Below, piece after piece: positions 2,952 to 60,349 of a stretch of DNA of 64,000 nt (its first letter is position 1; the number at the start of each line of letters is the position of its first letter). The stretch comes from Escherichia phage PSD2001, in the sequence record OK254198.1; one strand, written 5' to 3'. Below the pieces are notes generated by a model that did no database searches, was not told where the DNA came from, and saw nothing but the letters and a program-made list of their open reading frames with translations. Made by a program: the position numbers and the translations under genes.

Positions 2952-2991
2952 TTTATTCTCCAGGGTTTTAGTTGTTAACTCAGTATGGGAC

Positions 2992-3030
2992 CATTATGTC
3001 ATAGCCCCATTTGGTTGTACACTACTTTTT
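2992..3030 (-). promoter_or_regulatory. T4-type early promoter cassette (UP A-tract, -35 GTGTACA, -10 ATAATG, conserved leader)
   Basis: Plus-strand pattern cattat-N16-gttgtacactacttttt; member of a repeated family. Confidence 0.6.
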
Positions 3031-3295
3031 AAATTTTATCAAGCCATTTTCCAAGTTTAGTCATTTCCTTGGTGGCTTTTTCCATACTTCTGAACTTAAC
3101 TAATAAAGGATAGGTATCTACACCCATCACCAGATTGGTTGCAAGACTATGTTCACCCACAAGCCATAATGAGTATGTTTGAACATCCAGACCATAATTT
3201 CTGTCTTTATGTAAACGTACACCCATTACTTCAAACTGTTCACTCGCCCTTTCTACTGCGTCCAGGAAATCATCTTTAGTCATATTAGACCCCAA
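3029..3295 (-). CDS. hypothetical protein (84-88 aa)
   Basis: ORF track; start may be the internal Met at 3283. Confidence 0.45.
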   Translation of the reverse strand: MGSNMTKDDFLDAVERASEQFEVMGVRLHKDRNYGLDVQTYSLWLVGEHSLATNLVMGVDTYPLLVKFRSMEKATKEMTKLGKWLDKI

Positions 3296-3647
3296 AAGTT
3301 GCTTTAATCAATGCAATGACTTCCGCAGCATTTTTGTGATTGACTTGCACATGAATGGTTTGGGTATCAACATCAGGAGCATCGCCATCAACTTCCAGGA
3401 AGTGGCGGAATTCACTTTCAGAGAGTTCAAAATAATCATCAGCTCCATCGCTATTCAGGATGGTACCATCTTTCATTTCAACTTTTTCAACAAAATAATC
3501 ACCTTCAATATAACACATATCCAGGACTTTGAAGGAATTACCATGTTGTTCCATCAACTTGACCATACACGAATTAGATTTAGGATTTTCTTTAATGAAA
3601 CGTTTTTTGGCAGCAGGGTCTAATACGTAAAATTTACCAGTTTCCAT
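3285..3647 (-). CDS. hypothetical protein (120 aa), paralog of 3994..4356
   Basis: Start moved to internal Met with GAGGA RBS; shares the DDYFELSE.EF motif and C-terminal helix with 3994..4356. Confidence 0.6.
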   Translation of the reverse strand: METGKFYVLDPAAKKRFIKENPKSNSCMVKLMEQHGNSFKVLDMCYIEGDYFVEKVEMKDGTILNSDGADDYFELSESEFRHFLEVDGDAPDVDTQTIHVQVNHKNAAEVIALIKATFGV

Positions 3648-3704
3648 TTTAATTTCCTCATATTCAATTGGGAACATATTATCATGTTCCCGTTGGTTTG
3701 TATA

Positions 3705-3932
3705 CTAAGCTTCAATCAAATTCATATAAAATTCAGCGTCTTCCGGGTGCATCCCTTCGCAATACTCATCAGCCATAAAGCGGGTAAGGTCTTCAAGAGG
3801 ACCTTGGACTTCAATTTGCATACTACAGAATTGCTTATCTTTAATGTAAGTCATGCACAAAGAAGGATAACGATTGCGAATAACTTCGTAAGTGTATTCA
3901 AAATCAACGATATCAATATTAACCTTAGCCAT
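3705..3932 (-). CDS. hypothetical protein (75 aa)
   Basis: ORF track; early promoter cassette upstream. Confidence 0.5.
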
Positions 3933-3959
3933 TTTATTTTCCTCATGTAGTTGATAGGT

Positions 3960-3995
3960 CTATAGTATCTCAACCATAGACCCTTGTAAACTGCT
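3960..3995 (-). promoter_or_regulatory. early promoter (-35 GTTTACA)
   Basis: Plus-strand ttgtaaac with -10-like element ~16 nt away; upstream of 3705..3932. Confidence 0.5.
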
Positions 3996-4356
3996 ATTTG
4001 AAAGCTTTTTGTAGAAGTTCAATGATTTGGTCAACGTTATTAGCATCCACAACACAATTAATAGAAACCGCACCTGAAGGTGTTTTTGCATAACTAGAGT
4101 ATTCACGGAAGCAATAAAACTCTTCTTCACTAAGTTCAAAATAATCATCGCCCATACCATCATCATTATAGATTGCACCATTAGCACAAATGATTTCGGT
4201 TACATAATCATAGCCGTCTGCACTTGATATTGATTTAACTTCAAACCAACCGCCATTTTCTTGGATGATGTCGACCATACCAGCATTCGATGAACTAATA
4301 TCAATGAAAGATTTAATACGATGTGGATTGAACTCATATTTTTTGCCGATTTCCAT
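3994..4356 (-). CDS. hypothetical protein (120 aa), paralog of 3285..3647
   Basis: ORF track; shared motif with 3285..3647; early promoter cassette upstream. Confidence 0.6.
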   Translation of the reverse strand: MEIGKKYEFNPHRIKSFIDISSSNAGMVDIIQENGGWFEVKSISSADGYDYVTEIICANGAIYNDDGMGDDYFELSEEEFYCFREYSSYAKTPSGAVSINCVVDANNVDQIIELLQKAFK

Positions 4357-4393
4357 TTTAATTTCCTCAGTTGTTATCAGTAGTTGATGGAAT

Positions 4394-4433
4394 CATTATG
4401 CCTTAGCTCAAAGGACTTGTACACTACTTTTTG
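4394..4433 (-). promoter_or_regulatory. early promoter cassette
   Basis: cattat...cttgtacactactttttg directly after the gene 32 terminator. Confidence 0.6.
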
Positions 4434-4444
4434 AAAATAAAAAA

Positions 4445-4460
4445 GGGACCCGAAGGTCCC
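4445..4460 (-). terminator. rho-independent terminator after gene 32
   Basis: gggaccCGAAggtccc followed by a T-run on the minus strand. Confidence 0.75.
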
Positions 4461-4466
4461 CTTATA

Positions 4467-5378
4467 TTAAAGGCCAGCCAGAAGGTCGTCAAGACCATCA
4501 TCAGAAGGCTCTGGAGTGCTTGGAGCAGTCGCAGTGCGTTCAGACTTAGCAGGTTTGCTGGAAGTGAAGTCTTCCATATCTTTATCAAAATCGTCCAGGT
4601 CAGCACCCAGTTTATCGGCTTGCGCAGCAGCTTTAGAAGCAGCACCACCGAGAGCAGCTGTACCCATTACTTTAGAGAATTTCTTCTGATTCTCTTCAAG
4701 AGATTTAAATACCAGCAATTCATTCAGGTCAGACATTTCGTCCCAAAGTTTTTTCTGGAATGCTTCATCATTGATGCCAGCGATTTCAGACTGGTTCATG
4801 AATTTGGAATCATCGTAGTTTTTATAATTGGAAACCATTTTAGATTTCAGTACGAAGTTCGCACCTTCAAAAGGACAGGTTACATCAACAGCTGTTTCGC
4901 CCATGTCAACATCGACTTCAACCATCTGGTTGATTTTGTCCATGATTTTCTTACCAAAGCGATATTTGAATACTTGACCTTCGTTAGACGGAACTGCAGG
5001 GTCTTTAATGACCAGGATGTTAGCCCAGTAAGAAGTATTACGCTTCAGTTTACGATATTCGGATTCGTTTGTATTGTACAGGTCATTCTTATTCATGTAC
5101 GCACACACAGGGCAGTTTTCATAATCGCCGTGAGTAGAAGTACAGTTTTCAATATACCATTGACCAGCATTTTTAAAGCCGTGGTTAACGAGCTTGATGA
5201 ATGGAGATGGATTTTCTTCATTCTTAGAAGGCAGGAAACGAATAACCGCAGAGCCGACGCCATCAGTATCTTTCAGTTTCCATTCTTTTTTATCGTCAGA
5301 AGAGAAACCAGAACCACCTTTAAGAGCGTTAAGGGAAGCAGCCAGGTCAGCAGGGTTTTTACGTTTAAACATAGACAT
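4467..5378 (-). CDS. 32: single-stranded DNA-binding protein gp32
   Basis: 303 aa; [23 protein letters not shown]...; Zn-binding Cys/His cluster; acidic C-terminus; terminator hairpin immediately downstream. Confidence 0.95.
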
Positions 5379-17637: not shown

Positions 17638-18291
17638 ATGGAACCAAAAGTAGGAATATCAATACCCGACCTACTTTTTGGACTTCTTGATAGAATTTTT
17701 AAAGATAATGCGACCGGGAAAGTTGTTTTTTCCAGGGTACTAGTTATTGTTCTATTATTTTTAATGGCGGTAATCTGGTATAAAGGTGATGCACTTTTAG
17801 ATGCGTACAGGGATGCTTCATATGCCTCATACACTGAAATGATAAGGCAAGACCAGGATAACAGATTTAAAATTGCAGCTATCGAGCAAATCCAGATAGT
17901 CCACTCGTCAAGTGGGGCAGACTTTACAGCAATATATTCTTTTAGACCAACTAACCTTAACTACTTTGTGGATATGGTGGGATACGAGGGGATATTGCCT
18001 GATACAGTCGACGAAAAAAATTTAGGTGGGTTTCCAATAGATAAAACTTCGGCGGAATATTTGGCGGGGGTTAATGGTAATTATTTTGAATCCAGTACGG
18101 AATCTGTATTCTTACCAACAAAGAAAAAAAGCAGCTTCACATATATGTTCAGCTGCCCATTCTTTAATTTGGAAAACGTTTATGCAGGTACAGTCTCACT
18201 GTACTGGTATAAGCAAAAACCTAACCTTGGTTTTGATAGGCTTTCTGCTATGTGTGGACAAGCAGGTCGTACGCTCGGGCGTACACGTTAG
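17638..18291 (+). CDS. t: holin T
   Basis: 217 aa; ...LLFGLLDRIFKDNATGKV...single TM...; matches T4 holin; late promoter TATAAATA upstream. Confidence 0.93.
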   Translation: MEPKVGISIPDLLFGLLDRIFKDNATGKVVFSRVLVIVLLFLMAVIWYKGDALLDAYRDASYASYTEMIRQDQDNRFKIAAIEQIQIVHSSSGADFTAIYSFRPTNLNYFVDMVGYEGILPDTVDEKNLGGFPIDKTSAEYLAGVNGNYFESSTESVFLPTKKKSSFTYMFSCPFFNLENVYAGTVSLYWYKQKPNLGFDRLSAMCGQAGRTLGRTR

Positions 18292-18563
18292 AATCCGGAG
18301 GTATACATCATAAGATAACGGTGTATATCTTCGAATCCTTCGTTAAATTGTTCAATGATTTGTTCAATTTCATCTTCAGATAAACTTTTAAACAATTTGT
18401 TAAACGATACATTGTTTAACTCATTCCCATTCTCATTTCTCAATCCCAACTCATTCAAAAACGCGATAAACACATCACGCTTCATCGTAATATCTTCCCG
18501 GTCGGTTTTAATCAAAATTGAAGTTACAGTAACAATTTCAGAAACGATTTCAAATTTAGTCAT
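18288..18563 (-). CDS. asiA: anti-sigma70 factor AsiA
   Basis: 91 aa; ...VTVTSILIK...FIAFLNE...EQFNEGFEDIHRYL matches T4 AsiA. Confidence 0.9.
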   Translation of the reverse strand: MTKFEIVSEIVTVTSILIKTDREDITMKRDVFIAFLNELGLRNENGNELNNVSFNKLFKSLSEDEIEQIIEQFNEGFEDIHRYLMMYTSGF

Positions 18564-20854: not shown

Positions 20855-21082
20855 TTATCCCTTAATAGATTTCATGTAATTTGATGCATATGATTGTACC
20901 ACAGTACGTTTCATATGGGAAGTAGAAACAATCACATCAATTGCTTGTTTACGTTCTTCTTTAGAGTTTGCCAGTTTGAACATGTCAAAGTAGTAGTAGC
21001 AAGCTTCTTTGTTAGATTTGAATTTGATGTTGATGTATTCTTGACCTTCATTCTGTTGTGCAGTAAACATTTTATTCTCCAA
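20855..21082 (-). CDS. hypothetical protein (75 aa)
   Basis: ORF track; early promoter cassette immediately upstream. Confidence 0.5.
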   Translation of the reverse strand: MENKMFTAQQNEGQEYINIKFKSNKEACYYYFDMFKLANSKEERKQAIDVIVSTSHMKRTVVQSYASNYMKSIKG

Positions 21083-21098: not shown

Positions 21099-21151
21099 TG
21101 TGTAACTCAGTATGGAATCATTATGTCCTAAGACAAGGGGGTTGTACACTA
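21099..21151. repeat. 53-bp exact direct repeat, copy 1 (partner at ~47422-47474)
   Basis: tgtgtaactcagtatggaatcattatgtcctaagacaagggggttgtacacta read identically at both places. Confidence 0.85.
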
Positions 21152-21160: not shown

Positions 21161-21170
21161 AAATAAAAAA

Positions 21171-21186
21171 GGACCCCGAAGGGTCC
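21171..21186 (-). terminator. rho-independent terminator after the gene 52 unit
   Basis: ggaccccGAAgggtcc with a T-run on the minus strand. Confidence 0.7.
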
Positions 21187-21284
21187 TAGTCTTTATCTAT
21201 CTTATTACCAATAAACATACCAACAATCACACCTGCGATTGCCGCAAAAATACAAAGCAATGCAAACTCAACTCCAAAACTCAT
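21186..21284 (-). CDS. small hydrophobic peptide (32 aa), translationally coupled to the gene 52 stop; not in ORF track
   Basis: ATGA overlap with gene 52 stop; MSFGVEFALLCIFAAIAGVIVGMFIGNKIDKD; ends inside the terminator hairpin. Confidence 0.4.
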   Translation of the reverse strand: MSFGVEFALLCIFAAIAGVIVGMFIGNKIDKD

Positions 21285-23059: not shown

Positions 23060-23509
23060 TTAATAGCTCTGCAGAATGAATTTAAAGTTATCAGCAAGCA
23101 TGCGATTCATTTCTGAAAGGGTCTGACAATCAGAACTATGTGAGCGTGTGAACGCCATCGCAATTTGACCTTTACCATAACCAGTTGTCAAAGGTTTCAT
23201 TTTAGAAACTGGAACAAACAGGACTTCATAGATAACACCATTGTTCGCCATTGTGCGCGACAGTTGTGAACGCTGTTTGCGGATGTGACTTAATACAGTG
23301 TCAAACCCTTGTTGTGAACGTTGGTTACCAACGTAAAAACGTGCAGCAACAATACGTGATTCGCCTTCACCTTTAACCACGAAATAAAAACCTGGTTGGG
23401 TGATAGCTTCTTTAGTTGGACGCCCTACAACATAATTGCCATTATGGATGTGAGCAACAGTGGTAGCGCCAGCATTCAGTACGTCACGACGGGTCATGTA
23501 AGTAGTCAT
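23060..23509 (-). CDS. ndd: nucleoid disruption protein Ndd
   Basis: 149 aa; ...PGFYF...[29 protein letters not shown]...[12 protein letters not shown]...AFTR...[15 protein letters not shown] matches T4 Ndd. Confidence 0.9.
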
Positions 23510-23552
23510 ATTAATTTCCTCAGTAAGTTAAAGTTTTGTGCTCCAGTGGGGT

Positions 23553-23592
23553 CATTATACTCTGACCCCAAGAGTTTGTACACTATTTTTGA
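23553..23592 (-). promoter_or_regulatory. early promoter cassette with stem-loop spanning the -10 region
   Basis: ggggtcattatactctgacccc ... tttgtacactattttt. Confidence 0.55.
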
Positions 23593-23937: not shown

Positions 23938-24150
23938 TTATTCAGCGTCAACAGAAATAGCCATCAGTTCATCAACAGTAAGACACTGTACACTAGGACC
24001 TACGCAAAAACGCTTAGTTGAATCATTGAGGTCTGTAGCATTAACAGGTTGTAATTCGGTCCCAACTTGCAAAGGAGAAATACGAATAAGTTGTTGGCCA
24101 TTATGCAATACAAAGCTCTCACCGACTACCACATCTTTAAAAAGTTTCAT
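23938..24150 (-). CDS. hypothetical protein (70 aa)
   Basis: ORF track; GAGG RBS. Confidence 0.5.
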   Translation of the reverse strand: MKLFKDVVVGESFVLHNGQQLIRISPLQVGTELQPVNATDLNDSTKRFCVGPSVQCLTVDELMAISVDAE

Positions 24151-24167
24151 AATATTTTCCTCAGTAA

Positions 24168-24314
24168 TTAAAGAATTTCTTCAATTTGAATGTATTTGCT
24201 ATAACCTTCCTCAATGAGGATATCACGAGCACAATCAGCACTGATATAAGCATTAAAGCTAAGGGTTTTAATCACTTTACCATGCAGCTTTACTTTATAA
24301 ATTCGATTACCCAT
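24168..24314 (-). CDS. hypothetical protein (48 aa)
   Basis: Internal Met with GAGG RBS; intergenic cassette near-identical to that of 23938..24150. Confidence 0.45.
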   Translation of the reverse strand: MGNRIYKVKLHGKVIKTLSFNAYISADCARDILIEEGYSKYIQIEEIL

Positions 24315-24324
24315 AATATTTTCC

Positions 24325-24435
24325 TCAGAAGTTAAAGAATACGCGTACATGGTCAATCATAAAAACAATTGGGAAAATGCTCAGGACAACAAACAGTACA
24401 AACATGTTCCAAATGGCTTTAAGTAACTTTTTCAT
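24325..24435 (-). CDS. small hydrophobic peptide (36 aa); not in ORF track
   Basis: GGAG RBS and early promoter cassette upstream; coordinates approximate. Confidence 0.35.
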   Translation of the reverse strand: MKKLLKAIWNMFVLFVVLSIFPIVFMIDHVRVFFNF

Positions 24436-24844: not shown

Positions 24845-24872
24845 TTTGTTTCTCCAGTCTGTTTGGTAACTC

Positions 24873-24912
24873 AGTATGAAGCCATTATGCACTGACTCCA
24901 TACTGATGTACA
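24873..24912 (-). promoter_or_regulatory. early promoter cassette
   Basis: aactcagtatgaagccattat...gatgtacactatttt. Confidence 0.55.
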
Positions 24913-32177: not shown

Positions 32178-32582
32178 TTATTTGAATCGAAGCTGCTCTA
32201 ACATTTTAATAGCTTGTAGGCGCCCGGCTTCAGTTTTAACCGTAATAATAACATCGCCGCCGGTAACAACGATATCCTCTTTTGATTCCTGTTCGGTTAT
32301 TTCAGAATCATATTCCTTTATCGGGGTTTCTTCAAAATATTTAAATTCATCACCAAAAATAAGACCGGTTCCATTACGGCTATGGAAAGAAAATTCAGTT
32401 CCATCGATAGTACTAAATTCCGTAACAACATTTGCTTCCATCTTAGTGACTGAAAACTCTTTGGTAGTAACCAAATCAATGATAGAGGTTCCTTGTTGGT
32501 TCAAAATGCTACCAGGCATACCGACATGTTTAAGGAAGCCATCTAAATCTTTAATGTGATAACTCTTTCCAATTTTAAACAT
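32178..32582 (-). CDS. hypothetical protein (134 aa)
   Basis: Internal Met with GAGGA RBS; upstream extension overlaps the lipoprotein gene; terminator hairpin directly downstream. Confidence 0.5.
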   Translation of the reverse strand: MFKIGKSYHIKDLDGFLKHVGMPGSILNQQGTSIIDLVTTKEFSVTKMEANVVTEFSTIDGTEFSFHSRNGTGLIFGDEFKYFEETPIKEYDSEITEQESKEDIVVTGGDVIITVKTEAGRLQAIKMLEQLRFK

Positions 32583-32589
32583 AATATCC

Positions 32590-32850
32590 TCATTCGAATC
32601 GGATGGTTGAATTCTTAAACAGCAATCCAGAACAAACAGTTCCTTTAACTTTCTTACCAGTTGGCCCGACGGCCGTAAAGCCTGTATGTTGGAAATCATC
32701 TTCAGAGCAACCCATCCAGTTATATCCGGTGATTTGGATTTGCTCATAGCCGTTTGCATCTAATACACGAATGGCATTATCTGCATCAGTACAACCAGCC
32801 AATGAAACCGCCAGTACCAGTGCTGCAATAGAACGATTAATGTATTTCAT
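32590..32850 (-). CDS. small lipoprotein (86 aa; signal peptide with LAGC lipobox)
   Basis: MKYINRSIAALVLAVSLAGCTD... lipoprotein signal peptide. Confidence 0.6.
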   Translation of the reverse strand: MKYINRSIAALVLAVSLAGCTDADNAIRVLDANGYEQIQITGYNWMGCSEDDFQHTGFTAVGPTGKKVKGTVCSGLLFKNSTIRFE

Positions 32851-34164: not shown

Positions 34165-34204
34165 AATTTTCTCTCTTGGTTAATAAGTTTATTCTCCAGT
34201 GGGA

Positions 34205-34240
34205 CCATTATACTCTGGCCCCAAGAGTTTGTACACTTTA
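34205..34240 (-). promoter_or_regulatory. early promoter cassette with stem-loop
   Basis: gggaccattatactctggcccc...tttgtacact; upstream of 33673..34164. Confidence 0.55.
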
Positions 34241-41822: not shown

Positions 41823-41877
41823 AGTATTCTCCTCTGTAGTTGAGATAATTATACCATCTCTATTAAAAGCAAAAAAG

Positions 41878-41895
41878 GGAACCCGAAGGTTCCCT
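41878..41895 (-). terminator. rho-independent terminator after soc
   Basis: gggaaccCGAAggttccc + T-run on the minus strand. Confidence 0.75.
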
Positions 41896-44393: not shown

Positions 44394-44424
44394 AGTTTCC
44401 TCATTTCAATGGCCCCGAGGACCA

Positions 44425-44592
44425 TTATACTGTAGGTTTATCGTCTTTGTTCTTACGCTTTTTTGATGGGATTTGTTCAGGGCCTTTATTGACAACTGCC
44501 CCGGAAGTGGTACCTGTTGCGATATTAGTTGGGTTTCCACCTGCATCGCCAGCAACCATATCTTCGTTGATAAAATCTTTGAATGTTTTCAT
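44425..44592 (-). CDS. hypothetical small protein (55 aa); not in ORF track
   Basis: Hand-translated MKTFKDFINEDMVAGDAGGNPTNIATGTTSG...; G-rich RBS; coordinates approximate. Confidence 0.35.
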   Translation of the reverse strand: MKTFKDFINEDMVAGDAGGNPTNIATGTTSGAVVNKGPEQIPSKKRKNKDDKPTV

Positions 44593-44803: not shown

Positions 44804-44999
44804 ATTGTTCCCTTCTTTTAATTAGTTGACGATGCGCCTTTTTAAGTTTACGAATCTGGCGTTTAGTTGGTCGAGCAACGTAAGCTTGAGTAGTTACTCG
44901 TCCAAAAACTCCATACTTGGGAGACGGCGTATCAATAAAGACTTCCCATTGGCAAGAGTAACTATATATTGCTTTAGAGAATTGGGTCAAAACAAACAT
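44778..44999 (-). CDS. hypothetical basic protein (73 aa)
   Basis: ORF track; basic C-terminal region. Confidence 0.45.
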   Translation of the reverse strand: MFVLTQFSKAIYSYSCQWEVFIDTPSPKYGVFGRVTTQAYVARPTKRQIRKLKKAHRQLIKRREQYECNVYGL

Positions 45000-45000
45000 A

Positions 45001-45046
45001 TTAACCTCGCTTCATGAAGGCATTAAAAATCTGGTCGTCGACAGAC
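45001..45046. repeat. ~45-bp near-identical direct repeat at the 3' ends of two adjacent genes (partner at ~45356-45401)
   Basis: ttaacctcgcttcatgaaggcattaaaaatctggtcgtcgac vs ttaatctcgcttcatgaaagcattaaaaatctggtcgtcaac. Confidence 0.8.
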
Positions 45047-45354
45047 TGTTCTTGAGCTTTGACCCAAGCCCCTTCCAAAATGTCATTTGCTTCAGTAGAT
45101 AGCATGACCCCAATTTCAGGGTTTCCGGTTATCCATGCTGCACAATCACGTACATTCTTTTTATCAAATGGATAGCCGCGAGTATCTTCATAAGGTCCAT
45201 TCATTACCATAAATGAGCGAGCCTTTATGATAACACCATCTTTAACGATAATATAACCAATCGCCTGATTAAACCGAGGCTCACGAAATTCATAATGAGC
45301 ATTACCATCATTATTGCTCGTCAGTTCAAAATTCAGAAAATTATAATAACTCAT
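45001..45354 (-). CDS. hypothetical protein (117 aa) with C-terminal tail SVDDQIFNAFMKRG shared with the next gene
   Basis: ORF track; ~45-bp near-identical DNA repeat at the 3' ends of both genes. Confidence 0.55.
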   Translation of the reverse strand: MSYYNFLNFELTSNNDGNAHYEFREPRFNQAIGYIIVKDGVIIKARSFMVMNGPYEDTRGYPFDKKNVRDCAAWITGNPEIGVMLSTEANDILEGAWVKAQEQSVDDQIFNAFMKRG

Positions 45355-45355
45355 A

Positions 45356-45796
45356 TTAATCTCGCTTCATGAAAGCATTAAAAATCTGGTCGTCAACTGA
45401 ATAAACAGGGGTTTCCAGAAGTTTCAAAAGACTGTTTTTGATGTACTTACCAGGGATACCCATATTAACAATACTGTCATTCAATTCATTATCTGGGATG
45501 ATGTCTTTAAATTCAAACCCGTCAAACTCAACCTTGTCAGGAATACCGTCAGCGAAAAAATAAACCAATTGGTGCATTGTATTGCGCGAAAATAATTTAG
45601 ACTTGACCGCAATAAGTTCTTGCCAATGGTTTAATTCTTTGTTAAGAAGTTTATGAGCAAACGTAATTCTATTGTCACTATCGACAAGAAAATAACCCAG
45701 GTATTGAATGGGTTCGTCGCTCCAAAACATCCTGTATGCTTGTGCATTTTGATTTTTACAACGAAGTTTTTTGATAACTAAATTTCTGTTAATCAT
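45356..45796 (-). CDS. hypothetical protein (146 aa) with C-terminal tail SVDDQIFNAFMKRD
   Basis: Internal Met start lying 1 nt after the sp stop; shared C-terminal tail. Confidence 0.55.
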   Translation of the reverse strand: MINRNLVIKKLRCKNQNAQAYRMFWSDEPIQYLGYFLVDSDNRITFAHKLLNKELNHWQELIAVKSKLFSRNTMHQLVYFFADGIPDKVEFDGFEFKDIIPDNELNDSIVNMGIPGKYIKNSLLKLLETPVYSVDDQIFNAFMKRD

Positions 45797-45797
45797 T

Positions 45798-46091
45798 TTA
45801 TTCACCTGTAACCCATTGAACAATCTTGCTGTTGTCAAATGAAGCATCGCAATACAGAACATAGTTATACTGCATAACGTCACCAGAAGCCAGTTGGTCA
45901 GATACTTCTTTAACCATATCAGGGTGGTCACGTTTAGTAATGTTCATGATATCAGCATAAATCTGATGTTCAACATCGGTCTGGTCAGCAGTCATGGACC
46001 ACTCACAAAGGTCTTTATCAAGTCCAGCAGTAACTGGAGCTGTACCACATGATGCTACGGTAAGAATTGCTGCGATTAATAACTTTTTCAT
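45798..46091 (-). CDS. sp: Spackle periplasmic protein (superinfection exclusion / lysozyme inhibitor)
   Basis: 97 aa; signal peptide; ...DKDLCEWSMTADQT.VE.QI.ADIMNI.KRD.P.M...GDVMQYNYVLYCD... matches T4 Sp. Confidence 0.9.
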   Translation of the reverse strand: MKKLLIAAILTVASCGTAPVTAGLDKDLCEWSMTADQTDVEHQIYADIMNITKRDHPDMVKEVSDQLASGDVMQYNYVLYCDASFDNSKIVQWVTGE

Positions 46092-46109: not shown

Positions 46110-46152
46110 TGATAGGGATAATATACTGCATTATCCCTTTGATGTACACTTA
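46110..46152 (-). promoter_or_regulatory. early promoter with stem-loop (gggataat...attatccc)
   Basis: gatgtacact plus a perfect 8-bp inverted repeat; upstream of sp. Confidence 0.45.
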
Positions 46153-46491
46153 TTTTTCACCTTCAACTGAAAAACCGGTCAATTTGTAATATTCGGCACG
46201 TGCAATATGAAGAGCTGCTTCAATATCAGTAAGGCAGATTTCTTCATTTAACAGTTGCGCTTCAACGGTCAAAATCAGATTACGCAATGCGGTACCCTTA
46301 CGCATGTCTACTTTATGAATTAGCTTGTCATCAACAAAAGCTTCAACCAGCGCATTATAGTTATCAGCAGTCTTCTGGACATACCAGTGAATACCTGCGG
46401 GGTGGAACATGCTAGAACGTTCAAAAGATGGTACACCAACAGCACTCACTTTGATTGTTACTTTTACGCGGTCTTCTGGATTAAAAGCCAT
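46150..46491 (-). CDS. hypothetical protein (113 aa), tandem paralog of 46492..46704
   Basis: Shared segment NYNALVEAFVDDKLIHKVD vs VNNALVKAFVNDNKVFECD. Confidence 0.5.
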   Translation of the reverse strand: MAFNPEDRVKVTIKVSAVGVPSFERSSMFHPAGIHWYVQKTADNYNALVEAFVDDKLIHKVDMRKGTALRNLILTVEAQLLNEEICLTDIEAALHIARAEYYKLTGFSVEGEK

Positions 46492-46704
46492 TTAGATTTC
46501 CTCAGATAAGTGGATACGATAATCACATTCAAAAACTTTATTGTCATTAACAAAGGCTTTCACCAGCGCATTATTCACTTCTGCATACTGCACTGTAACC
46601 CATTCAATCATATTTTGGTCACTAACATCCAGCGCAGTTTCTTTGGTAAACATATTACCATTTTCAAACCAACCAATAAACACTACGTTCTCTAATTTAT
46701 ACAT
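46492..46704 (-). CDS. hypothetical protein (70 aa), tandem paralog of 46150..46491
   Basis: ORF track; shared motif. Confidence 0.5.
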   Translation of the reverse strand: MYKLENVVFIGWFENGNMFTKETALDVSDQNMIEWVTVQYAEVNNALVKAFVNDNKVFECDYRIHLSEEI

Positions 46705-47022
46705 TTAGATTTCCTCACAAAACGCCCAGTCTGCATGATAAACTGTTGCGCCTTTAGTATCATTTAAACAAACCACGTCAACAGGTGCAATCACACGATA
46801 AAGACGGGGTTCTCCTCCATACGAGCGAGCTGCTCTTCCTGCATAGATACGCGCCAAACCAATATCTTCAGTAAAAAACACACGCCCTAAATTTTTCTTA
46901 CGCCCAACTTCTGACAGAACACCAGTTACATCAGGAGGACAAAGCATATTTTGGATTCCAGCATTAGAGCTTGACCCATGATAATAAACTTTGTATTCTG
47001 CCTTGCAATCAATGGTTTTCAT
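46705..47022 (-). CDS. hypothetical protein (105 aa)
   Basis: ORF track; early promoter cassette upstream. Confidence 0.5.
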   Translation of the reverse strand: MKTIDCKAEYKVYYHGSSSNAGIQNMLCPPDVTGVLSEVGRKKNLGRVFFTEDIGLARIYAGRAARSYGGEPRLYRVIAPVDVVCLNDTKGATVYHADWAFCEEI

Positions 47023-47065
47023 TTTATTCTCCAGTAGTTGATAGAGTCATTATAACATAAGAAAA

Positions 47066-47082
47066 AGGGGCTGTAAGCCCCT
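47066..47082 (-). terminator. rho-independent terminator after 47091..47393
   Basis: aggggcTGTAAgcccct + T-run. Confidence 0.65.
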
Positions 47083-47090
47083 TTATTCAC

Positions 47091-47393
47091 TTACGCCAAC
47101 TCATAGTTGTGCATAGTCAGACAACGAATTTTCCCAGTAGTTGGGTGCATAACAGTCACACTAATTGTGTAATCATCGCACACGTTAACAAAAGGTTCAG
47201 CGATAACATATACTTCACCGCCTGCAAGCAGATACTCACGAAGAGAGCTGCGAACAGATGAAGGTTGAACATCGCTTTTGAGCTTTATTAATTTACCAGT
47301 TTGAATGCCTGATGCGATAAGAGCAGCACAGTTTTCATCACGGCGAGCGAATTGTCCAAAATAGTAACGATTCATGTCGGTTTGATTAAACAT
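47091..47393 (-). CDS. hypothetical protein (100 aa)
   Basis: ORF track; terminator hairpin downstream. Confidence 0.5.
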   Translation of the reverse strand: MFNQTDMNRYYFGQFARRDENCAALIASGIQTGKLIKLKSDVQPSSVRSSLREYLLAGGEVYVIAEPFVNVCDDYTISVTVMHPTTGKIRCLTMHNYELA

Positions 47394-47421
47394 ATGGTTT
47401 TCCTTTTAACAGTTGGTTTAT

Positions 47422-47474
47422 TGTGTAACTCAGTATGGAATCATTATGTCCTAAGACAAGGGGGTTGTACACTA
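47422..47474. repeat. 53-bp exact direct repeat, copy 2
   Basis: Same 53-mer as at ~21099-21151. Confidence 0.85.
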
Positions 47475-47480
47475 TTTTAA
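47442..47480 (-). promoter_or_regulatory. early promoter cassette (second copy of the 53-bp exact repeat)
   Basis: Identical to the 21.1-kb copy. Confidence 0.65.
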
Positions 47481-47720
47481 TTCATTAATTAAATGAAAAT
47501 CTTGTGCATTGAAAGTAATGAAAAAATAATCATTCCCTTCAACTGAAGCATGACAAGCAACACTACACCAGCGCCTTGCTCTGTTCAATGAGCAATCCAA
47601 AATTTTAAAAGGCTTCAGACCAACAATGTCAGCTGTTCTTTTATTATGCTCACAAATATCAGCATACTTTTGGAGAGCTTCTTCAGATTTGAACTGGTAA
47701 TGCACATTAACTAATAACAT
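47472..47720 (-). CDS. hypothetical protein (82 aa) in the slot next to gene 41 where T4 carries dmd
   Basis: Position only; GAGGA RBS. Confidence 0.45.
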   Translation of the reverse strand: MLLVNVHYQFKSEEALQKYADICEHNKRTADIVGLKPFKILDCSLNRARRWCSVACHASVEGNDYFFITFNAQDFHLINELK

Positions 47721-47794
47721 TTTATTATCCTCATCAGTAGTTGATGGGATAATAGTACACTCTTTTTATGGTGATGTAAACCCCTAAATGAAAA

Positions 47795-47808
47795 AGACCC
47801 GAAGGTCT
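47795..47808 (-). terminator. rho-independent terminator after gene 41
   Basis: agaccCGAAggtct + T-run right after the stop codon. Confidence 0.65.
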
Positions 47809-49248
47809 TTAGAATTTCATTTGAGCAGCAAGGTCGTCCAGGTCGCTCCTGTTGACCCTGGTTTGTCTATTCATTTCAGCCTGGCGATTCATCTCACCGG
47901 TGGCTTCTTTAACCGTAGGGCCTTGTTTAGGAGCTGAATCATCATCAATCTCGTACCAGCGCTGATTGCCTTTCTTAACACCCATCTTGAATTTATTATA
48001 GTAGTTCTTATCGCCATAACGAGACTTAAGCTGTTTGATTAACTGTAGTCCCATTTGAGCGAATTCTTCGGTCTCAACAACACCCAACATAAAGTCGGCC
48101 GTGTGAGCAATACCAAAGGATTCTGCGATGTCAGCCATATCAATCTCAGCTGCAACGTTTGCGCCCCTTGTTGTCTGCGCTGCAGTCCACAGGACTACAT
48201 TTTTCTCGACCGCCAGACCACGAAGTTCTTCTGCAACCATCTTAATCAGACCGTAACTGTTTTCGGTAAACGTTTTCAGTCTTGAGCTTGCACAGATTGC
48301 CAGGTAGTCAACAATAATCACATCCGGCACAAACCCTTGCTTCAGTTTGTATTCATTCAATAATGCACGGAAGGTATCCGCATGAGCACCGCCAGTTGGA
48401 TATTGTTTTATCTTCAGAGTCCCAAGAGTCCCGGCTGCACGCCATTTTTCCATCTTAGCTTTATATTCCGCCCATGACACATGACCTTCATCAATATCAT
48501 CCAGAGATACATCCAGCAAGTTGGCATCAATACGTTTGGCACATACTTCTTCAGCCATTTCCATGCTTATATAAAGCACGTTATGACCAGTCTGAAGATA
48601 GTCGGCCGCTAACGAACAAAGTCCCAGAGATTTCCCGACGTTGGTCCCGGCCAGTAAAACGTTCTCTGTGCCGTACTCAACTCCACCCTTCGTGATTTTA
48701 TTCAGGATGTTAATGCGGAACGGAACCTTTTTCGATTTGTTCAGATAAGTCTGGAATCGAGCTTCGTAATCGTTTAACCAATCATGGCCCAGAGCAGAGT
48801 CAAAACAGATAGACAATGCATCGCGCATGATGTCGGGGATAGCACCAATATCCGGGATTCGTTTATCACGTTTATCTTTCGGAAGTTCGGCATTACTCTG
48901 GATTTCGATAATCCTGGATGTGGCATTGAACATCGCAGATTTCTGCACATACTTCTCGGTTTCTCTAACCAACCATTCTTGGTCTTCTGGAGTATCGGCC
49001 AGGACTCCTAAGAGTTTCTTTGTGCCTTCATATTCGACTTCAGAAAGGTCAGAACTGTCGAGCGCGATATCAAGTGCAGTCTTAGTTGGTACCGCTTGAT
49101 ATTCTTTTACGTGTTCGTTAATCGTATTAAAAAGGGTCTTCGCGGGACCCTTTTCAAAATATGTGTTATTCAGATACGGCCAGACTTTAACAAAATATTC
49201 CTTGTTAAAGAGTAGCTGGGATAAAATAGTTTCTACCACTTCCACCAC
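47809..49248 (-). CDS. 41: replicative DNA helicase gp41 (DnaB-like)
   Basis: 479 aa; Walker A ...GTNVGKSLGLCSLA...; close to the T4 gp41 length. Confidence 0.95.
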   Translation of the reverse strand: MVEVVETILSQLLFNKEYFVKVWPYLNNTYFEKGPAKTLFNTINEHVKEYQAVPTKTALDIALDSSDLSEVEYEGTKKLLGVLADTPEDQEWLVRETEKYVQKSAMFNATSRIIEIQSNAELPKDKRDKRIPDIGAIPDIMRDALSICFDSALGHDWLNDYEARFQTYLNKSKKVPFRINILNKITKGGVEYGTENVLLAGTNVGKSLGLCSLAADYLQTGHNVLYISMEMAEEVCAKRIDANLLDVSLDDIDEGHVSWAEYKAKMEKWRAAGTLGTLKIKQYPTGGAHADTFRALLNEYKLKQGFVPDVIIVDYLAICASSRLKTFTENSYGLIKMVAEELRGLAVEKNVVLWTAAQTTRGANVAAEIDMADIAESFGIAHTADFMLGVVETEEFAQMGLQLIKQLKSRYGDKNYYNKFKMGVKKGNQRWYEIDDDSAPKQGPTVKEATGEMNRQAEMNRQTRVNRSDLDDLAAQMKF

Positions 49249-51759: not shown

Positions 51760-51795
51760 GTAATCATACGGCAATCCATTGCCGTTGTAAACACT
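51760..51795 (-). promoter_or_regulatory. early promoter (-35 GTTTACA) with 8-bp stem-loop in the spacer, upstream of imm
   Basis: acggcaatccattgccgt hairpin followed by ttgtaaacac. Confidence 0.45.
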
Positions 51796-57712: not shown

Positions 57713-57931
57713 TTAATCAAAGTATTCATATGCAAACCAGGCATTGTGTCTGTTCGCGATTATTTTAACATATTCTTCACCGAAAGCGTTTTGTAAGTCA
57801 CGTTCAGTAACAAGGTGTTCATCTTTCGAAAAGGTATTAACTAACACATACCGTTTAATTTCAGGGACAGCCAGTAAATGCTGCCCGGTTAAAAAATTGC
57901 TCATAAATAATATTATCCGTTGCAGTATCAA
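57713..57931 (-). CDS. hypothetical protein (72 aa), 45.2-like position
   Basis: ORF track. Confidence 0.5.
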   Translation of the reverse strand: MILQRIILFMSNFLTGQHLLAVPEIKRYVLVNTFSKDEHLVTERDLQNAFGEEYVKIIANRHNAWFAYEYFD

Positions 57932-58666
57932 ACAAGGGTCTGATATGAATTATAACATCATTTACCAAAAGCTTATTAGCAGAGCATTGAATCGCAAATT
58001 AACCACATACTCTGAAAGTCATCACATTATACCCCGTTGTATGGGTGGGGCAGACGATGCTTCAAATCTTGTTGATTTAACTCCCGAGGAACATTTCGTT
58101 TGTCATCAACTGTTGGTCAAAATGCATCCAAATAATGCTTCTTTGGTCTATGCCGCGCGCATGATGACAGTTTCCTCACCAAACGCCGACAGAAGCAAAA
58201 ACAAATTATTTGGATGGCTTCGTCGTAAAAACTTGGAAGCTCAACAAAATAAAATTTTCTCCGATGAAACCAGAAAGAAAATGTCAGAATCCGCCAAATT
58301 AAAACCGAGAGTTGAATGTCCACACTGTGGAAAAACCGGTCTCGTTGGCAATATGAATCGTTGGCATTTTGATAACTGTTCCAAAGGTCCAAACAAGGTT
58401 GTTCATACTATTCCAGAAAAACAAAAGCAAAAAATTTCAGTAGGATTAAAACAAGCTAAACATGAAATTTTAACTTGTGAATTTTGTGGTCTTGAAGGTA
58501 AAAAGTGTGTTATATCCACTCACCAACAATTCTGCAAATCCAATCCAAACCGGAAGAAAAAGGTGGACCCCAAAATTCAGTGTCCACATTGTAATGTAGT
58601 CGGTACGCCAGCCAATATGAAACGTTGGCATTTTGATAACTGCAAAATGAAGCCTCAATAAGAGGC
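57932..58666 (+). mobile_element. putative homing endonuclease insertion between 45.2 and 46
   Basis: Single oppositely oriented HNH gene filling an intergenic slot in a conserved replication gene block; boundaries inferred. Confidence 0.5.
57945..58661 (+). CDS. free-standing HNH homing endonuclease (mob-like) with tandem zinc-binding repeats
   Basis: 238 aa from internal Met; HNH motif SHHIIPRCMGGADDASNLVDLTPEEHFVCH; repeats CPHCGKTGLVGNMNRWHFDNC / CPHCNVVGTPANMKRWHFDNC; opposite strand to all neighbours. Confidence 0.8.
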   Translation: MNYNIIYQKLISRALNRKLTTYSESHHIIPRCMGGADDASNLVDLTPEEHFVCHQLLVKMHPNNASLVYAARMMTVSSPNADRSKNKLFGWLRRKNLEAQQNKIFSDETRKKMSESAKLKPRVECPHCGKTGLVGNMNRWHFDNCSKGPNKVVHTIPEKQKQKISVGLKQAKHEILTCEFCGLEGKKCVISTHQQFCKSNPNRKKKVDPKIQCPHCNVVGTPANMKRWHFDNCKMKPQ

Positions 58667-60349
58667 TCATTCCAGAACAGTAAATCGACCGACTTTTTTC
58701 ATTTGAAGATGCTGCCCATATGCTTCTGGGTCGTGTTCACGATGGCTAATGATAAACACGTTTTGACCTTCCAATTTATTAATAATTGCCTGGATAGCTT
58801 TGATGCCTTCGGCGTCAGTGGCTGAATCCATGACCTCATCCAGAATCAACGTACTAATTTGCACACCAGATACTTTCGCAGCAATATCACGCCATGTAAA
58901 CAGCAATGCAATATCGATACGAGCTTTTTCGCCCTGGCTAAATGATGCATAGCTGAAGTCTTCACGTCCACGAGATTTAATCGTTTCGTTGAACTCTTCA
59001 TCTAACGTAAAACTATAATCAGCTTCCATAACTTTAAGGTAAGCGTTTATCTGCTTATTAAAGATAGGAATATATTTCTTAATAATCGCACCTTTGATAC
59101 CAGAATCTTTCAACATATCCGTTAGGATGCCACGTTGATATTTTTCCATCACAAGGTCAGATTTCTGTTTGACTATTTTATCAAGCTGGTCTTGAAGCAT
59201 TTTAATGTCTGCTGCATGGTCAATAAATTCTGACTTAGCTTGCTCGATTAATGCTTTAACCTTTTTAGCCTTTTCAACAGTCTGGACTAAGGTTTGTTTC
59301 TTAGTTTGAATGTCTTGGGCTATTGTACGCTGGTTTTGTCTTGCAGCAGAATACGTATCAAATTGCTCCTGAACAGCATTCTGACGAGCTTTATGCTTAT
59401 CAGCTGATGCATTACATTCTTCAATCTTTGACTCAATCCTGGCGACAATGGGGTCTCCTGGATGCAACTGACTGGCACAAGTCTGACAGCAACCACCTTT
59501 CTCGTACAGACCAACAACCTTTCGGTAATCGTCAATCTTCGATTTAATCAGGAATGATTCCTGCTTTAACTTCGTGAGTTCATGCTCAGGGTCTTCTCCC
59601 AAGATTATCTCGGTCAGTCTTGTCGTTGCTTCTTCGATAGTCGTTTTGATTCCACGTGCTTCCGTGGCAAGTTCATCATACATCGTTTGCAGCCGCAACA
59701 GATTATCACCTGATAATTTTCTTTGACGGTCTTCGTTGTCCTGATAGATTTTAATCTGTTGAACAATACCATCATGCTGCACATCCATCACCTGGATTTG
59801 ACTATTGACTTCGCGGATAAGAGATTTGTTCAGCTTATCCATATCGGCCAGTACAGAAACCTCTAAAAGGTCTTCGACAAGTTTTCTTCTTGCAGGAGTG
59901 GATAGGCCCATAAAAGGGGTATATCCAGCTGTGCCGAGTACGACAATCTGTTTGAAGCTTGCATAGGACATTCCGATAAGCTGTTCAAATTCTGCTTGGA
60001 AGTCTTTACTGCTGGCAGATTCATCAAGACGTTTACCGCCACAAGAGATTTCAAAAACATTGGGTTTTTGCCCGCGTTTGATATAGTATTCTTTTCCATC
60101 ATATTCCATCCACAATTCAACGAGCATATCTTTTTTGTTGCTCGAGTTAATCAACTGGCCTTTCTTTACATCACGGAAAGGCTTACCGAACATAGCAAAG
60201 GTAACCGCTTCAAGGAACGTAGATTTACCCGCACCATTCTTACCGGTGACCAGAGTTTTTTGGACTTTATCCAGTTCAACAGTAATCGGTTGAGCACCAA
60301 CCGACATAATATTTTTATAGATAACTTTCTTAAGCTTAAAAGTCTTCAC
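58667..60349 (-). CDS. 46: recombination endonuclease subunit gp46 (Rad50/SbcC-like ATPase)
   Basis: 560 aa; Walker A GKNGAGKSTFLEA; coiled-coil middle; same length as T4 gp46. Confidence 0.95.
   Translation of the reverse strand: MKTFKLKKVIYKNIMSVGAQPITVELDKVQKTLVTGKNGAGKSTFLEAVTFAMFGKPFRDVKKGQLINSSNKKDMLVELWMEYDGKEYYIKRGQKPNVFEISCGGKRLDESASSKDFQAEFEQLIGMSYASFKQIVVLGTAGYTPFMGLSTPARRKLVEDLLEVSVLADMDKLNKSLIREVNSQIQVMDVQHDGIVQQIKIYQDNEDRQRKLSGDNLLRLQTMYDELATEARGIKTTIEEATTRLTEIILGEDPEHELTKLKQESFLIKSKIDDYRKVVGLYEKGGCCQTCASQLHPGDPIVARIESKIEECNASADKHKARQNAVQEQFDTYSAARQNQRTIAQDIQTKKQTLVQTVEKAKKVKALIEQAKSEFIDHAADIKMLQDQLDKIVKQKSDLVMEKYQRGILTDMLKDSGIKGAIIKKYIPIFNKQINAYLKVMEADYSFTLDEEFNETIKSRGREDFSYASFSQGEKARIDIALLFTWRDIAAKVSGVQISTLILDEVMDSATDAEGIKAIQAIINKLEGQNVFIISHREHDPEAYGQHLQMKKVGRFTVLE

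Follow-up and report, generated by a model that had tools for sequence, protein, structure and literature searches.

Cassettes upstream of small genes in a Gaprivervirus phage are probably sigma-70 early promoters in PeSL form, with gene conversion of the motA-promoter spacer and hairpins acting in read-through RNA

The window analysed here is a 64,000-nt stretch of the genome of Escherichia phage PSD2001 (OK254198.1). It matches Gaprivervirus genomes (VR7, SP18, VR20, P896, 212 and others) as a mosaic, at 92–98% DNA identity, and the phage is assigned to Gaprivervirus as a VR7/SP18-like T4-type coliphage. The gene order is T4-like and comprises asiA, motA, gp52, ndd, denB, rIIB/A, gp39, motB, dexA and dda, and srd, modA/B, soc, gp56, gp61, sp, dmd, gp41, uvsX, imm and gp43 through gp55. 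A cassette profile was built from the first-found cassettes and applied to the window and 12 relatives. It found 18 cassettes in the window, all of them on the minus strand, which is the early-gene strand, and 197 in the window and relatives together, again without exception on the early-gene strand. None lay in the late plus-strand tail-fibre block of the window. The family of at least 12 cassettes named in the original prediction is therefore real and its motif recurs elsewhere in the window, but 12 was an undercount. Orthologues of T4 early genes lie behind 8 of the 18 cassettes (asiA, the motA operon, ndd, motB, srd, mod, sp and imm), the ndd.4 orthologue is also preceded by a cassette in the same orientation, and ten small genes of unknown function likewise have one upstream. 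The distance from the cassette to the SD and ATG is 20–43 nt in all 18 cases. The variable small proteins had no match in Pfam and mostly matched 'unknown function' entries in PHROGs, and a search of the whole window with Rfam at gathering thresholds returned no family.

Several of the small genes are related to each other. Two adjacent 120-aa genes with separate cassettes (3285–3647 and 3994–4356, minus strand) are paralogues (phrog_622), and a third, 193-aa relative lies at 32178–32759 (minus strand), where the segment 32190–32587 is absent from six relatives. In TH15 the two 120-aa paralogues are differently arranged, an apparent gene-order shuffle around P2993–P4395. The first 49 nt of two other adjacent genes (45001–45354 and 45356–45931) are 92% identical (44997–45045 versus 45352–45400), and this sequence likeness marks the two genes as a tandem paralogue pair or a conversion tract.

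The cassettes share an extended architecture (Table 1). The A-tract, the GTGTACA/GTTTACA -35 and the conserved leader that had been described for them agree with the column consensus and the motif counts, while the -10 element, originally given as ATAATG, is better read as the hexamer YATAAT followed by G. The consensus just upstream of the -35 is aaAaA.ta, an A-rich UP-like tract, and the AT-rich tract upstream of the cassettes often contains the stop codon of the upstream gene. The -35 is GTGTACA in 12 cassettes, GTTTACA in 3, GTATACA in 2 and GCTTACA in 1. All 18 have a spacer of 16–17 nt, a -10 of the form YAnnnT and an A at the 7th base past the -10; the bases ahead of this predicted +1 A are C-rich. 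The initial transcribed sequence exists in three versions, AUACUGAGUU, AUCAACUACUGR and ACUGGAG. The spacers are the least constrained part, with 17 different ones among the 18 cassettes. GTGTACA-N17-YATAAT with at most one mismatch matched 10 times, all on the minus strand, versus 0.29 expected, and CCATACTGAGTT and ATCAACTACTGR matched 5 and 7 times in the window versus 0.34 and 0.59 expected, respectively. A generic sigma-70 hexamer scan found 69 sites versus 56 expected, which is barely above background in this AT-rich DNA, so the support for promoters comes from the extended motif of the family and from orthology. A related but different element lies at 41832–41893 (minus strand). It is a MotA-box (TTGCTTTTA) middle promoter with the -10 TATAAT at 41848–41853, and it has a cassette-like leader ATCTCAACTACAGAGGAG, a GAGAT/ATCTC stem around the -10 and a terminator directly upstream.

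Table 1. Putative early-promoter cassettes and associated elements in the window
Feature	Coordinates	Strand	Description
P2993	2977..3022	-	class-A leader; precedes 79-aa gene; hairpin 2985-3010 around -10
SD of P2993	2951-2961	-	perfect RegB site
P3676	3660..3705	-	GTATACA / TAATAT; 8-9 bp hairpin GGGAACAT..ATGTTCCC 3670-3691 around -10
P3962	3946..3991	-	T4-like GTTTACA / TACTAT; class-B leader; hairpin 3956-3983
P4395 with upstream terminator (~4442-4461)	4379..4461	-	composite paralogue of copy-1 cassette; no -10 hairpin
P18613	18597..18642	-	precedes asiA (18288-18563); no hairpin
Copy 1 of 53-bp repeat	21099..21151	-	putative early promoter of 71-aa gene (20855-21070) and motA operon; -35 TGTACA 21143-21148; -10 CATAAT 21120-21125; predicted +1 A 21113; class-A leader
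Terminator hairpin AGGACCCTTCGGGGTCCT and T-run	21170..21187	-	directly upstream of copy 1; composite terminator-promoter
P23554	23538..23583	-	precedes ndd; class-C hairpin 23541-23574 around -10, arms GGGGTCA..TGACCCC, outer CTCT/GGAG
P24462	24440..24490	-	precedes ndd.4 orthologue (36 aa, 24325-24435)
Hairpin of P24462	24440-24484	-	17 bp; spacer ATCTCCAGTGGTT complementary to leader/SD AACC..ACTGGAGAT
P24884	24868..24913	-	14-bp hairpin 24871-24906
P34207	34191..34236	-	precedes motB; class-C hairpin 34194-34227 GGGGCCA..TGGTCCC; compensatory changes in orthologues
P35288	35272..35317	-	class-B leader; leader hairpin CTCATCA..TGATGAG; precedes 85-aa gene and motB.1
P38648	38632..38676	-	16-nt spacer; class-A leader; precedes srd
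P39404	39388..39433	-	GTATACA / TAAGAT; class-B leader; precedes ADP-ribosylase gene (mod)
P46120	46104..46149	-	precedes sp (spackle); hairpin GGGATAAT..ATTATCCC 46114-46138
P47049	47031..47084	-	-35 CTTACA in loop of terminator hairpin AAAGGGGCTTACAGCCCCTTTTT (~47062-47084); T-run in spacer; left boundary of 723-bp indel
Copy 2 of 53-bp repeat	47422..47474	-	putative early promoter of 100-aa gene 47091-47393; -35 47466-47471; -10 47443-47448; predicted +1 ~47436
TAG in copy 2	47472-47474	-	stop codon of upstream 82-aa gene
P47752 with upstream gp41 terminator (47791-47810)	47736..47810	-	GTTTACA / TACTAT; class-B leader; would drive 82-aa goF-like gene, an indel among relatives
P51763	51747..51792	-	precedes imm; 7-bp hairpin CGGCAAT..ATTGCCG 51768-51785 wholly within spacer

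The architecture corresponds to that of T4 early promoters. The T4-type early consensus combines GTTTAC at -36 to -31 with an A-rich stretch from -40 to -44 and C from -3 to -1 (Nolan 2006, PMC1524935), and T4 early promoters have 'additional regions of consensus' (Hinton 2010, PMC2988021). The cassettes likewise have the UP-like A-tract, the G at -36, the 17-bp spacing between -35 and -10, the C-rich -3 to -1 and extra conserved positions, and they serve the same genes (motA, the ndd region and others). The difference is in the -35, which is GTTTAC in T4, whereas GTGTAC is dominant here (12/18). The same profile detected GTTTACA/TACTAT with the leader ..CTATCAAC.. in Dhakavirus, an RB69-like phage and T4, where the motA promoter bears the ATCAACTACTGA leader. 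Because the class-B leader is found in these three, it is taken to be ancestral. The class-A leader AUACUGAGUU is confined to Gaprivervirus among the genomes examined, and together with the GTGTACA -35 it looks like a local variant. From motif and orthology we infer promoter activity, start sites and timing: the cassettes would be fired by the host RNA polymerase right after infection, and would serve host-takeover genes and small accessory genes.

The resemblance to PeSL cassettes that had been proposed is borne out feature by feature (AT-rich tract, sigma-70-type promoter, stem-loop, SD and ATG). In PeSLs the stem-loop lies most often between the -35 and -10 or over the -10 (PMC2839356, PMC4122927); in the window it lies in the spacer, around the -10, around the -35, or upstream as a terminator. 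Like the PeSLs of RB49/phi1 (Arbiol 2010, PMC2839356), the cassettes end in an SD and ATG, are repeated before small accessory genes on the early strand, and contain the ends of some indels and replacements between close relatives. Unlike them, they have GTGTACA and non-polyG/polyC stems instead of a perfect TTGACA -35 and polyG/polyC stems, and several members use a canonical UUCG-loop terminator instead. Mini-circles have been demonstrated for RB49/phi1 (PMC2839356), whereas the promoters and terminators in the window are predicted from sequence. The PeSLs of T4/PST and nt-1/KVP40 (PMC4122927) also include composite terminator-promoter motifs, and the T4/PST consensus TTTACW-N17-TAYWAT fits the minority GTTTACA/TACTAT members of the window. 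For T4/PST, the stem-loop is described as immediately preceding the promoter (PMC4122927), whereas in the window it surrounds the -10 in half of the members. The ndd.4 region is one of the exchange examples in Comeau 2014 (PMC4122927). The PeSL analogy is apt, and the elements themselves are probably T4-type early promoters.

Two of the cassettes contain an exact repeat. The 53-bp identity between 21099–21151 and 47422–47474 reported in the original prediction was confirmed, and its borders are sharp on both sides. The minus-strand sequence of the repeat is TAGTGTACA-ACCCCCTTGTCTTAGGA-CATAAT-GATTCCATACTGAGTTACACA, which consists of TAG-TGTACA with the -35, the 17-nt spacer ACCCCCTTGTCTTAGGA, the -10 CATAAT and GATTCC-A-TACTGAGTTACACA. 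Its exact 30-nt core had no match among IMG/VR viral contigs. Neither copy forms a significant hairpin (-5.7 kcal/mol, z about -1.2), and a terminator lies upstream of copy 1 and none upstream of copy 2. The -35 part TAGTGTACA and CATAATGATTCCATACTGAGTTAC are common to the copy-1 and copy-2 promoters in nearly all genomes compared. At the motA promoter the spacer (21126–21142) is hypervariable, with the version of the window and nine others in 12 genomes, while the -35 and the -10/leader are nearly invariant. Ten of 12 genomes have a spacer of another type than copy 2 at this promoter (for example AGTCCCTTGACCCGATG, ACCAGATGGTCATGAGG and TGACCCTTGACCTGATG). A copy-2-type spacer was found there only in the window and in TH44, with one difference in the latter. 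At the copy-2 promoter itself, the orthologues in 5 relatives have the spacer A[G/A]CCCCTTGTCTTAGGA, and the spacer in 212, P896, CJ20 and TH41 is AGCCCCTTGTCTTAGGA, one difference from the window. Because synteny is kept on both sides of copy 1 in all relatives and the difference is confined to the 17-nt spacer, the repeat is explained by short-patch gene conversion. The compared sequences indicate a converted tract of about 8–17 nt, added to 36 bp that the two paralogous promoters, which lie 26 kb apart, had in common beforehand. Copy 2 is likely the donor of the converted spacer and copy 1 the overwritten sequence. The same synteny means that copy 1 marks no exchanged module.

The two leaders part immediately after ACACA. 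That of copy 1 continues into GGAGAAUAAAA, a perfect RegB/S1 site which is its SD; GGAG is absent from copy 2. The RegB/S1 target consensus is GGAGRAYARAA (PMC1702504), and its perfect matches in the window are only 2951–2961, 21070–21080 and 47022–47032 on the minus strand, versus 0.27 expected. All three are SDs just downstream of early cassettes, including that of copy 1 (motA operon).

To what extent cassettes coincide with recombination was examined with chained blastn alignments between the window and 12 relatives, which gave 55 distinct breakpoints outside the tail-fibre genes. Eight of these fall in cassette footprints, which make up 3.4% of the sequence (p=5e-4), but the fair null is that of gene junctions. 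Indel breakpoints were present at 8/18 cassette-bearing junctions versus 29/86 other gene junctions (OR 1.6, p=0.27), and the view that cassettes bound recently exchanged modules is thus not upheld as a general rule. Comparing cassette-flanked modules with relatives did reveal clear single exchange events. VR7 lacks 47473–47774 and with it the 82-aa goF-like gene; the missing stretch is precisely what separates the -35 boxes of P47752 and P47443 (copy 2). Five genomes lack 47085–47807 with two genes and two cassettes, and terminator hairpins lie at the bounds. P896 and CJ20 lack 46159–46515, which starts 10 nt upstream of the -35 of P46120. In 12 genomes, the gene behind the P24884 cassette encodes one of three unrelated proteins of 68, 87/88 or 51 aa. 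Since the cassettes are alike over 30–100 bp, homologous recombination of the phage would act on them, and recombination between cassettes would explain some of the indels and gene replacements. The aligned genomes demonstrate sequence exchange between cassettes in the conversion of the motA spacer and in the absence of 47473–47774 from VR7. Cassettes can thus serve as exchange points, although they are not shown to be privileged ones in this sample.

Other recombining junctions consist of conserved RBS/start repeats, a translational-coupling junction and a homing-endonuclease insertion. RBS/start repeats of the form ..ACTGAGGAAATTAAAATG.. are present at 23507–23535, 24148–24176 and 24312–24340, and at 3633–3660, 3918–3945 and 4342–4369, and they coincide with the indel breakpoints 24148, 24319 and 4364. 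Because breakpoints lie at such repeats, recombination uses translation-initiation regions too and not promoters alone. The 305-aa ORF at 57744–58661 (plus strand) matches homing endonucleases (phrog_655, E=1e-67). It lies in a 773-bp segment (57896–58668) between the gp45/rpbA block and gp46; 7 relatives have about 45 bp in place of this segment.

The 53-bp identity could also have arisen in other ways. Convergence through selection for an optimal promoter, or an assembly artefact, would produce it without recombination, and the 36 of 53 bp in the -35 and -10/leader are indeed kept in both promoters in nearly all genomes compared. However, it is the 17-nt spacer, the least constrained part of the family, that is identical here, and both copies in the window share a C that is absent at that position from the copy-2 promoters of relatives. 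An artefact is argued against by TH44, an independent genome with the same spacer type at its motA promoter. Taken together, an origin without recombination is extremely improbable. Alternatively, the cassettes may be mobile elements, either MITE-like or moving as a site-specific PeSL mini-circle, and the 53-bp repeat may be the footprint of a recent insertion of promoter plus gene. Promoter-plus-gene units do occur in 0, 1 or 2 copies between gp41 and dmd in 13 genomes, with bounds inside cassettes or terminators, one cassette stands before three unrelated genes, and RB49/phi1 provides a precedent for mini-circles (PMC2839356). Nevertheless, the syntenic flanks of copy 1, where the spacer alone differs, point to conversion and not insertion. 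Moreover, most cassettes are at orthologous positions in all genomes, their junctions are no richer in breakpoints than other gene junctions, and many breakpoints are at conserved RBS/start-codon repeats or at the homing endonuclease gene. Mobility is therefore considered unlikely, and gene conversion between resident promoters is the preferred explanation of the repeat.

The stem-loops reported to span the -10 or the spacer of several cassettes were confirmed by folding in 9 of the 18. The spacer, the -10 and 22 nt were folded, and z scores were calculated against shuffles that keep the -10. The nine strong hairpins have MFEs of -11.4 to -21.8 kcal/mol (z ≤ -2.7); eight hold the -10 in or near the loop, and one, in the imm promoter, is wholly in the spacer. 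Among the distinct cores from all genomes, 53/113 had z ≤ -2.5. When terminators are included, 13 of the 18 cassettes have a stem-loop within or adjoining the promoter (a hairpin around the -10 in 8 and in the spacer in 1, a terminator upstream in 3 and around the -35 in 1). A hairpin and a terminator were never found together (0/4 versus 12/18 cassette types, p=0.03; 22 types in 13 genomes), which hints at an equivalent role. Intrinsic-terminator status of the hairpins around the -10 themselves is not supported, since they have no U-tract and none was called by the terminator scan; for the same reason, these hairpins give no sign of the terminator role that PeSL stem-loops have been proposed to play.

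The pairing in these hairpins is maintained while the sequence changes. Orthologues of the motB promoter have the stems GGGGTC/GACCCC, GGGGCC/GGTCCC and GGGACC/GGTCCC, and paralogues have GGGAGC paired with GCTCCC or GTTCCC. The corresponding stems are GAGAGC/GCTCTC in the RB69-like phage and CGAGAATC/GGTTCTCG at the ndd promoter of Dhakavirus. In an alignment of 14 sequences, 96% of the cells are paired, and only two stem pairs are variable, both with double changes (9 cells). The observed covariation was reached by 0/500 shuffles, as counted for related, non-independent sequences. The 53 strong distinct cores are more stable in the sense than in the antisense orientation (-15.6 versus -12.8 kcal/mol; p=2e-6, indicative only, as the sequences are related), and they contain 57 G.U pairs in the sense versus 24 in the antisense orientation. 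Since it is only on the sense strand that compensatory and G.U changes preserve the hairpins, these are considered to act as RNA. The pattern of substitutions shows selection for the pairing of the -10 hairpins on the sense strand. The transcript of the cassette itself would start inside the 3' arm, so the structure is possible only in read-through RNA, where it might lead to attenuation, processing or stabilisation.

Inverted repeats of this kind could instead work as DNA, either by serving a dimeric regulator as operators or by forming cruciforms that influence how the promoter opens. In favour of this, the stems flank the -10, where the DNA melts on open-complex formation, and several arms extend into the -10 hexamer itself. 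However, the arms of different cassettes are wholly unlike in sequence, as are those of different genera before the same gene, yet they still pair, which argues against a site for a sequence-specific protein. Furthermore, the substitutions pass through G.U pairs, which are possible on the sense strand only. In P24884, for example, three changes preserve the pairing as wobbles, and the hairpin has -20.3 kcal/mol in the sense versus -10.2 kcal/mol in the antisense orientation. A function at the DNA level is thus very unlikely, and RNA hairpins are the preferred explanation.

Two similar hairpins were observed outside the cassettes. In T4, the sequence at about 4545–4600 upstream of ndd has a hairpin GGCCG..CGGCC followed by TTGGAG and no recognisable -35; it occupies the position of the ndd-promoter hairpin of Gaprivervirus and suggests a promoter-independent role of the hairpin. 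In the window, a TATAAT without a -35 lies upstream of gp61 (44402–44432, minus strand), followed by the hairpin ATGGTCC-TCG-GGGCCAT just before the primase SD, and this could be the 5'-terminal hairpin of a middle or other transcript.

At the ndd.4 orthologue, which encodes a 36-aa membrane protein, the hairpin includes the SD. The promoter spacer ATCTCCAGT.. pairs with the leader and the SD ..ACTGGAGAT. According to the folding predictions, the SD is unpaired with a probability of 0.49 in the cassette's own transcript versus 0.00 in the read-through RNA. The corresponding values are 0.73 versus 0.00 for T4 ndd.4 (arms TTCTTCC/GGAGGAA) and 0.65 versus 0.10 for Dhakavirus ndd.4 (arms CTCCATTAG/CTAATGGAG), where the arms differ from those of the window by a compensatory change from G-C to T-A. 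Read-through RNA would thus hide the RBS of ndd.4, and only promoter-proximal transcripts would be translated. Strong masking is predicted at P24462 only, with a weaker effect at P47752 (0.48 versus 0.09). SD masking as a general role of the hairpins was ruled out, since the accessibility of the SD is unchanged at the others, and the role of those hairpins stays an inference for the same reason.

RBS-masking hairpins that enclose a late promoter are found in the T4 genes e, soc, 49 and I-TevI. As predicted for ndd.4, the SD of these genes is sequestered in read-through RNA, but a transcript begun at the enclosed promoter has no 5' arm and can be translated. The difference is that the enclosed promoter is a late one in the T4 genes, whereas ndd.4 has an early sigma-70 promoter there, with the spacer itself as the 5' arm. 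It is possible, although somewhat doubtful, that about half of the early promoters carry, in their spacers, the 5' arm of an RNA switch, and that this is conserved across Tevenvirinae genera. RNA derived from upstream would then fold around the embedded -10 and be masked, processed or attenuated, while RNA initiated at the embedded promoter would have no such arm. The clearest case would be the anti-SD spacer of ndd.4 in T4, Dhakavirus and Gaprivervirus.

Overall, the cassettes are probably sigma-70 early promoters in PeSL form, with gene conversion of the motA spacer and with hairpins that act in read-through RNA. No description of early promoters in VR7 or other Gaprivervirus phages was found in the open-access literature searched, and the present analysis yields a catalogue of predicted early promoters for this genus. 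The 53-bp repeat provides a clean natural case of short-patch gene conversion, here between promoters that lie far apart in a T4-type genome. The PeSL shuffling model is tempered, since with 12 relatives the cassettes are no better recombination boundaries than other junctions. The evolution of the hairpins on the sense strand, their mutual exclusion with terminators and the predicted masking of ndd.4 in three genera make a function of promoter-embedded stem-loops directly testable. The promoter spacer is usually regarded as information-free; if spacers do encode the arm of an RNA switch, the expression of each such gene would hinge on which promoter made its transcript.
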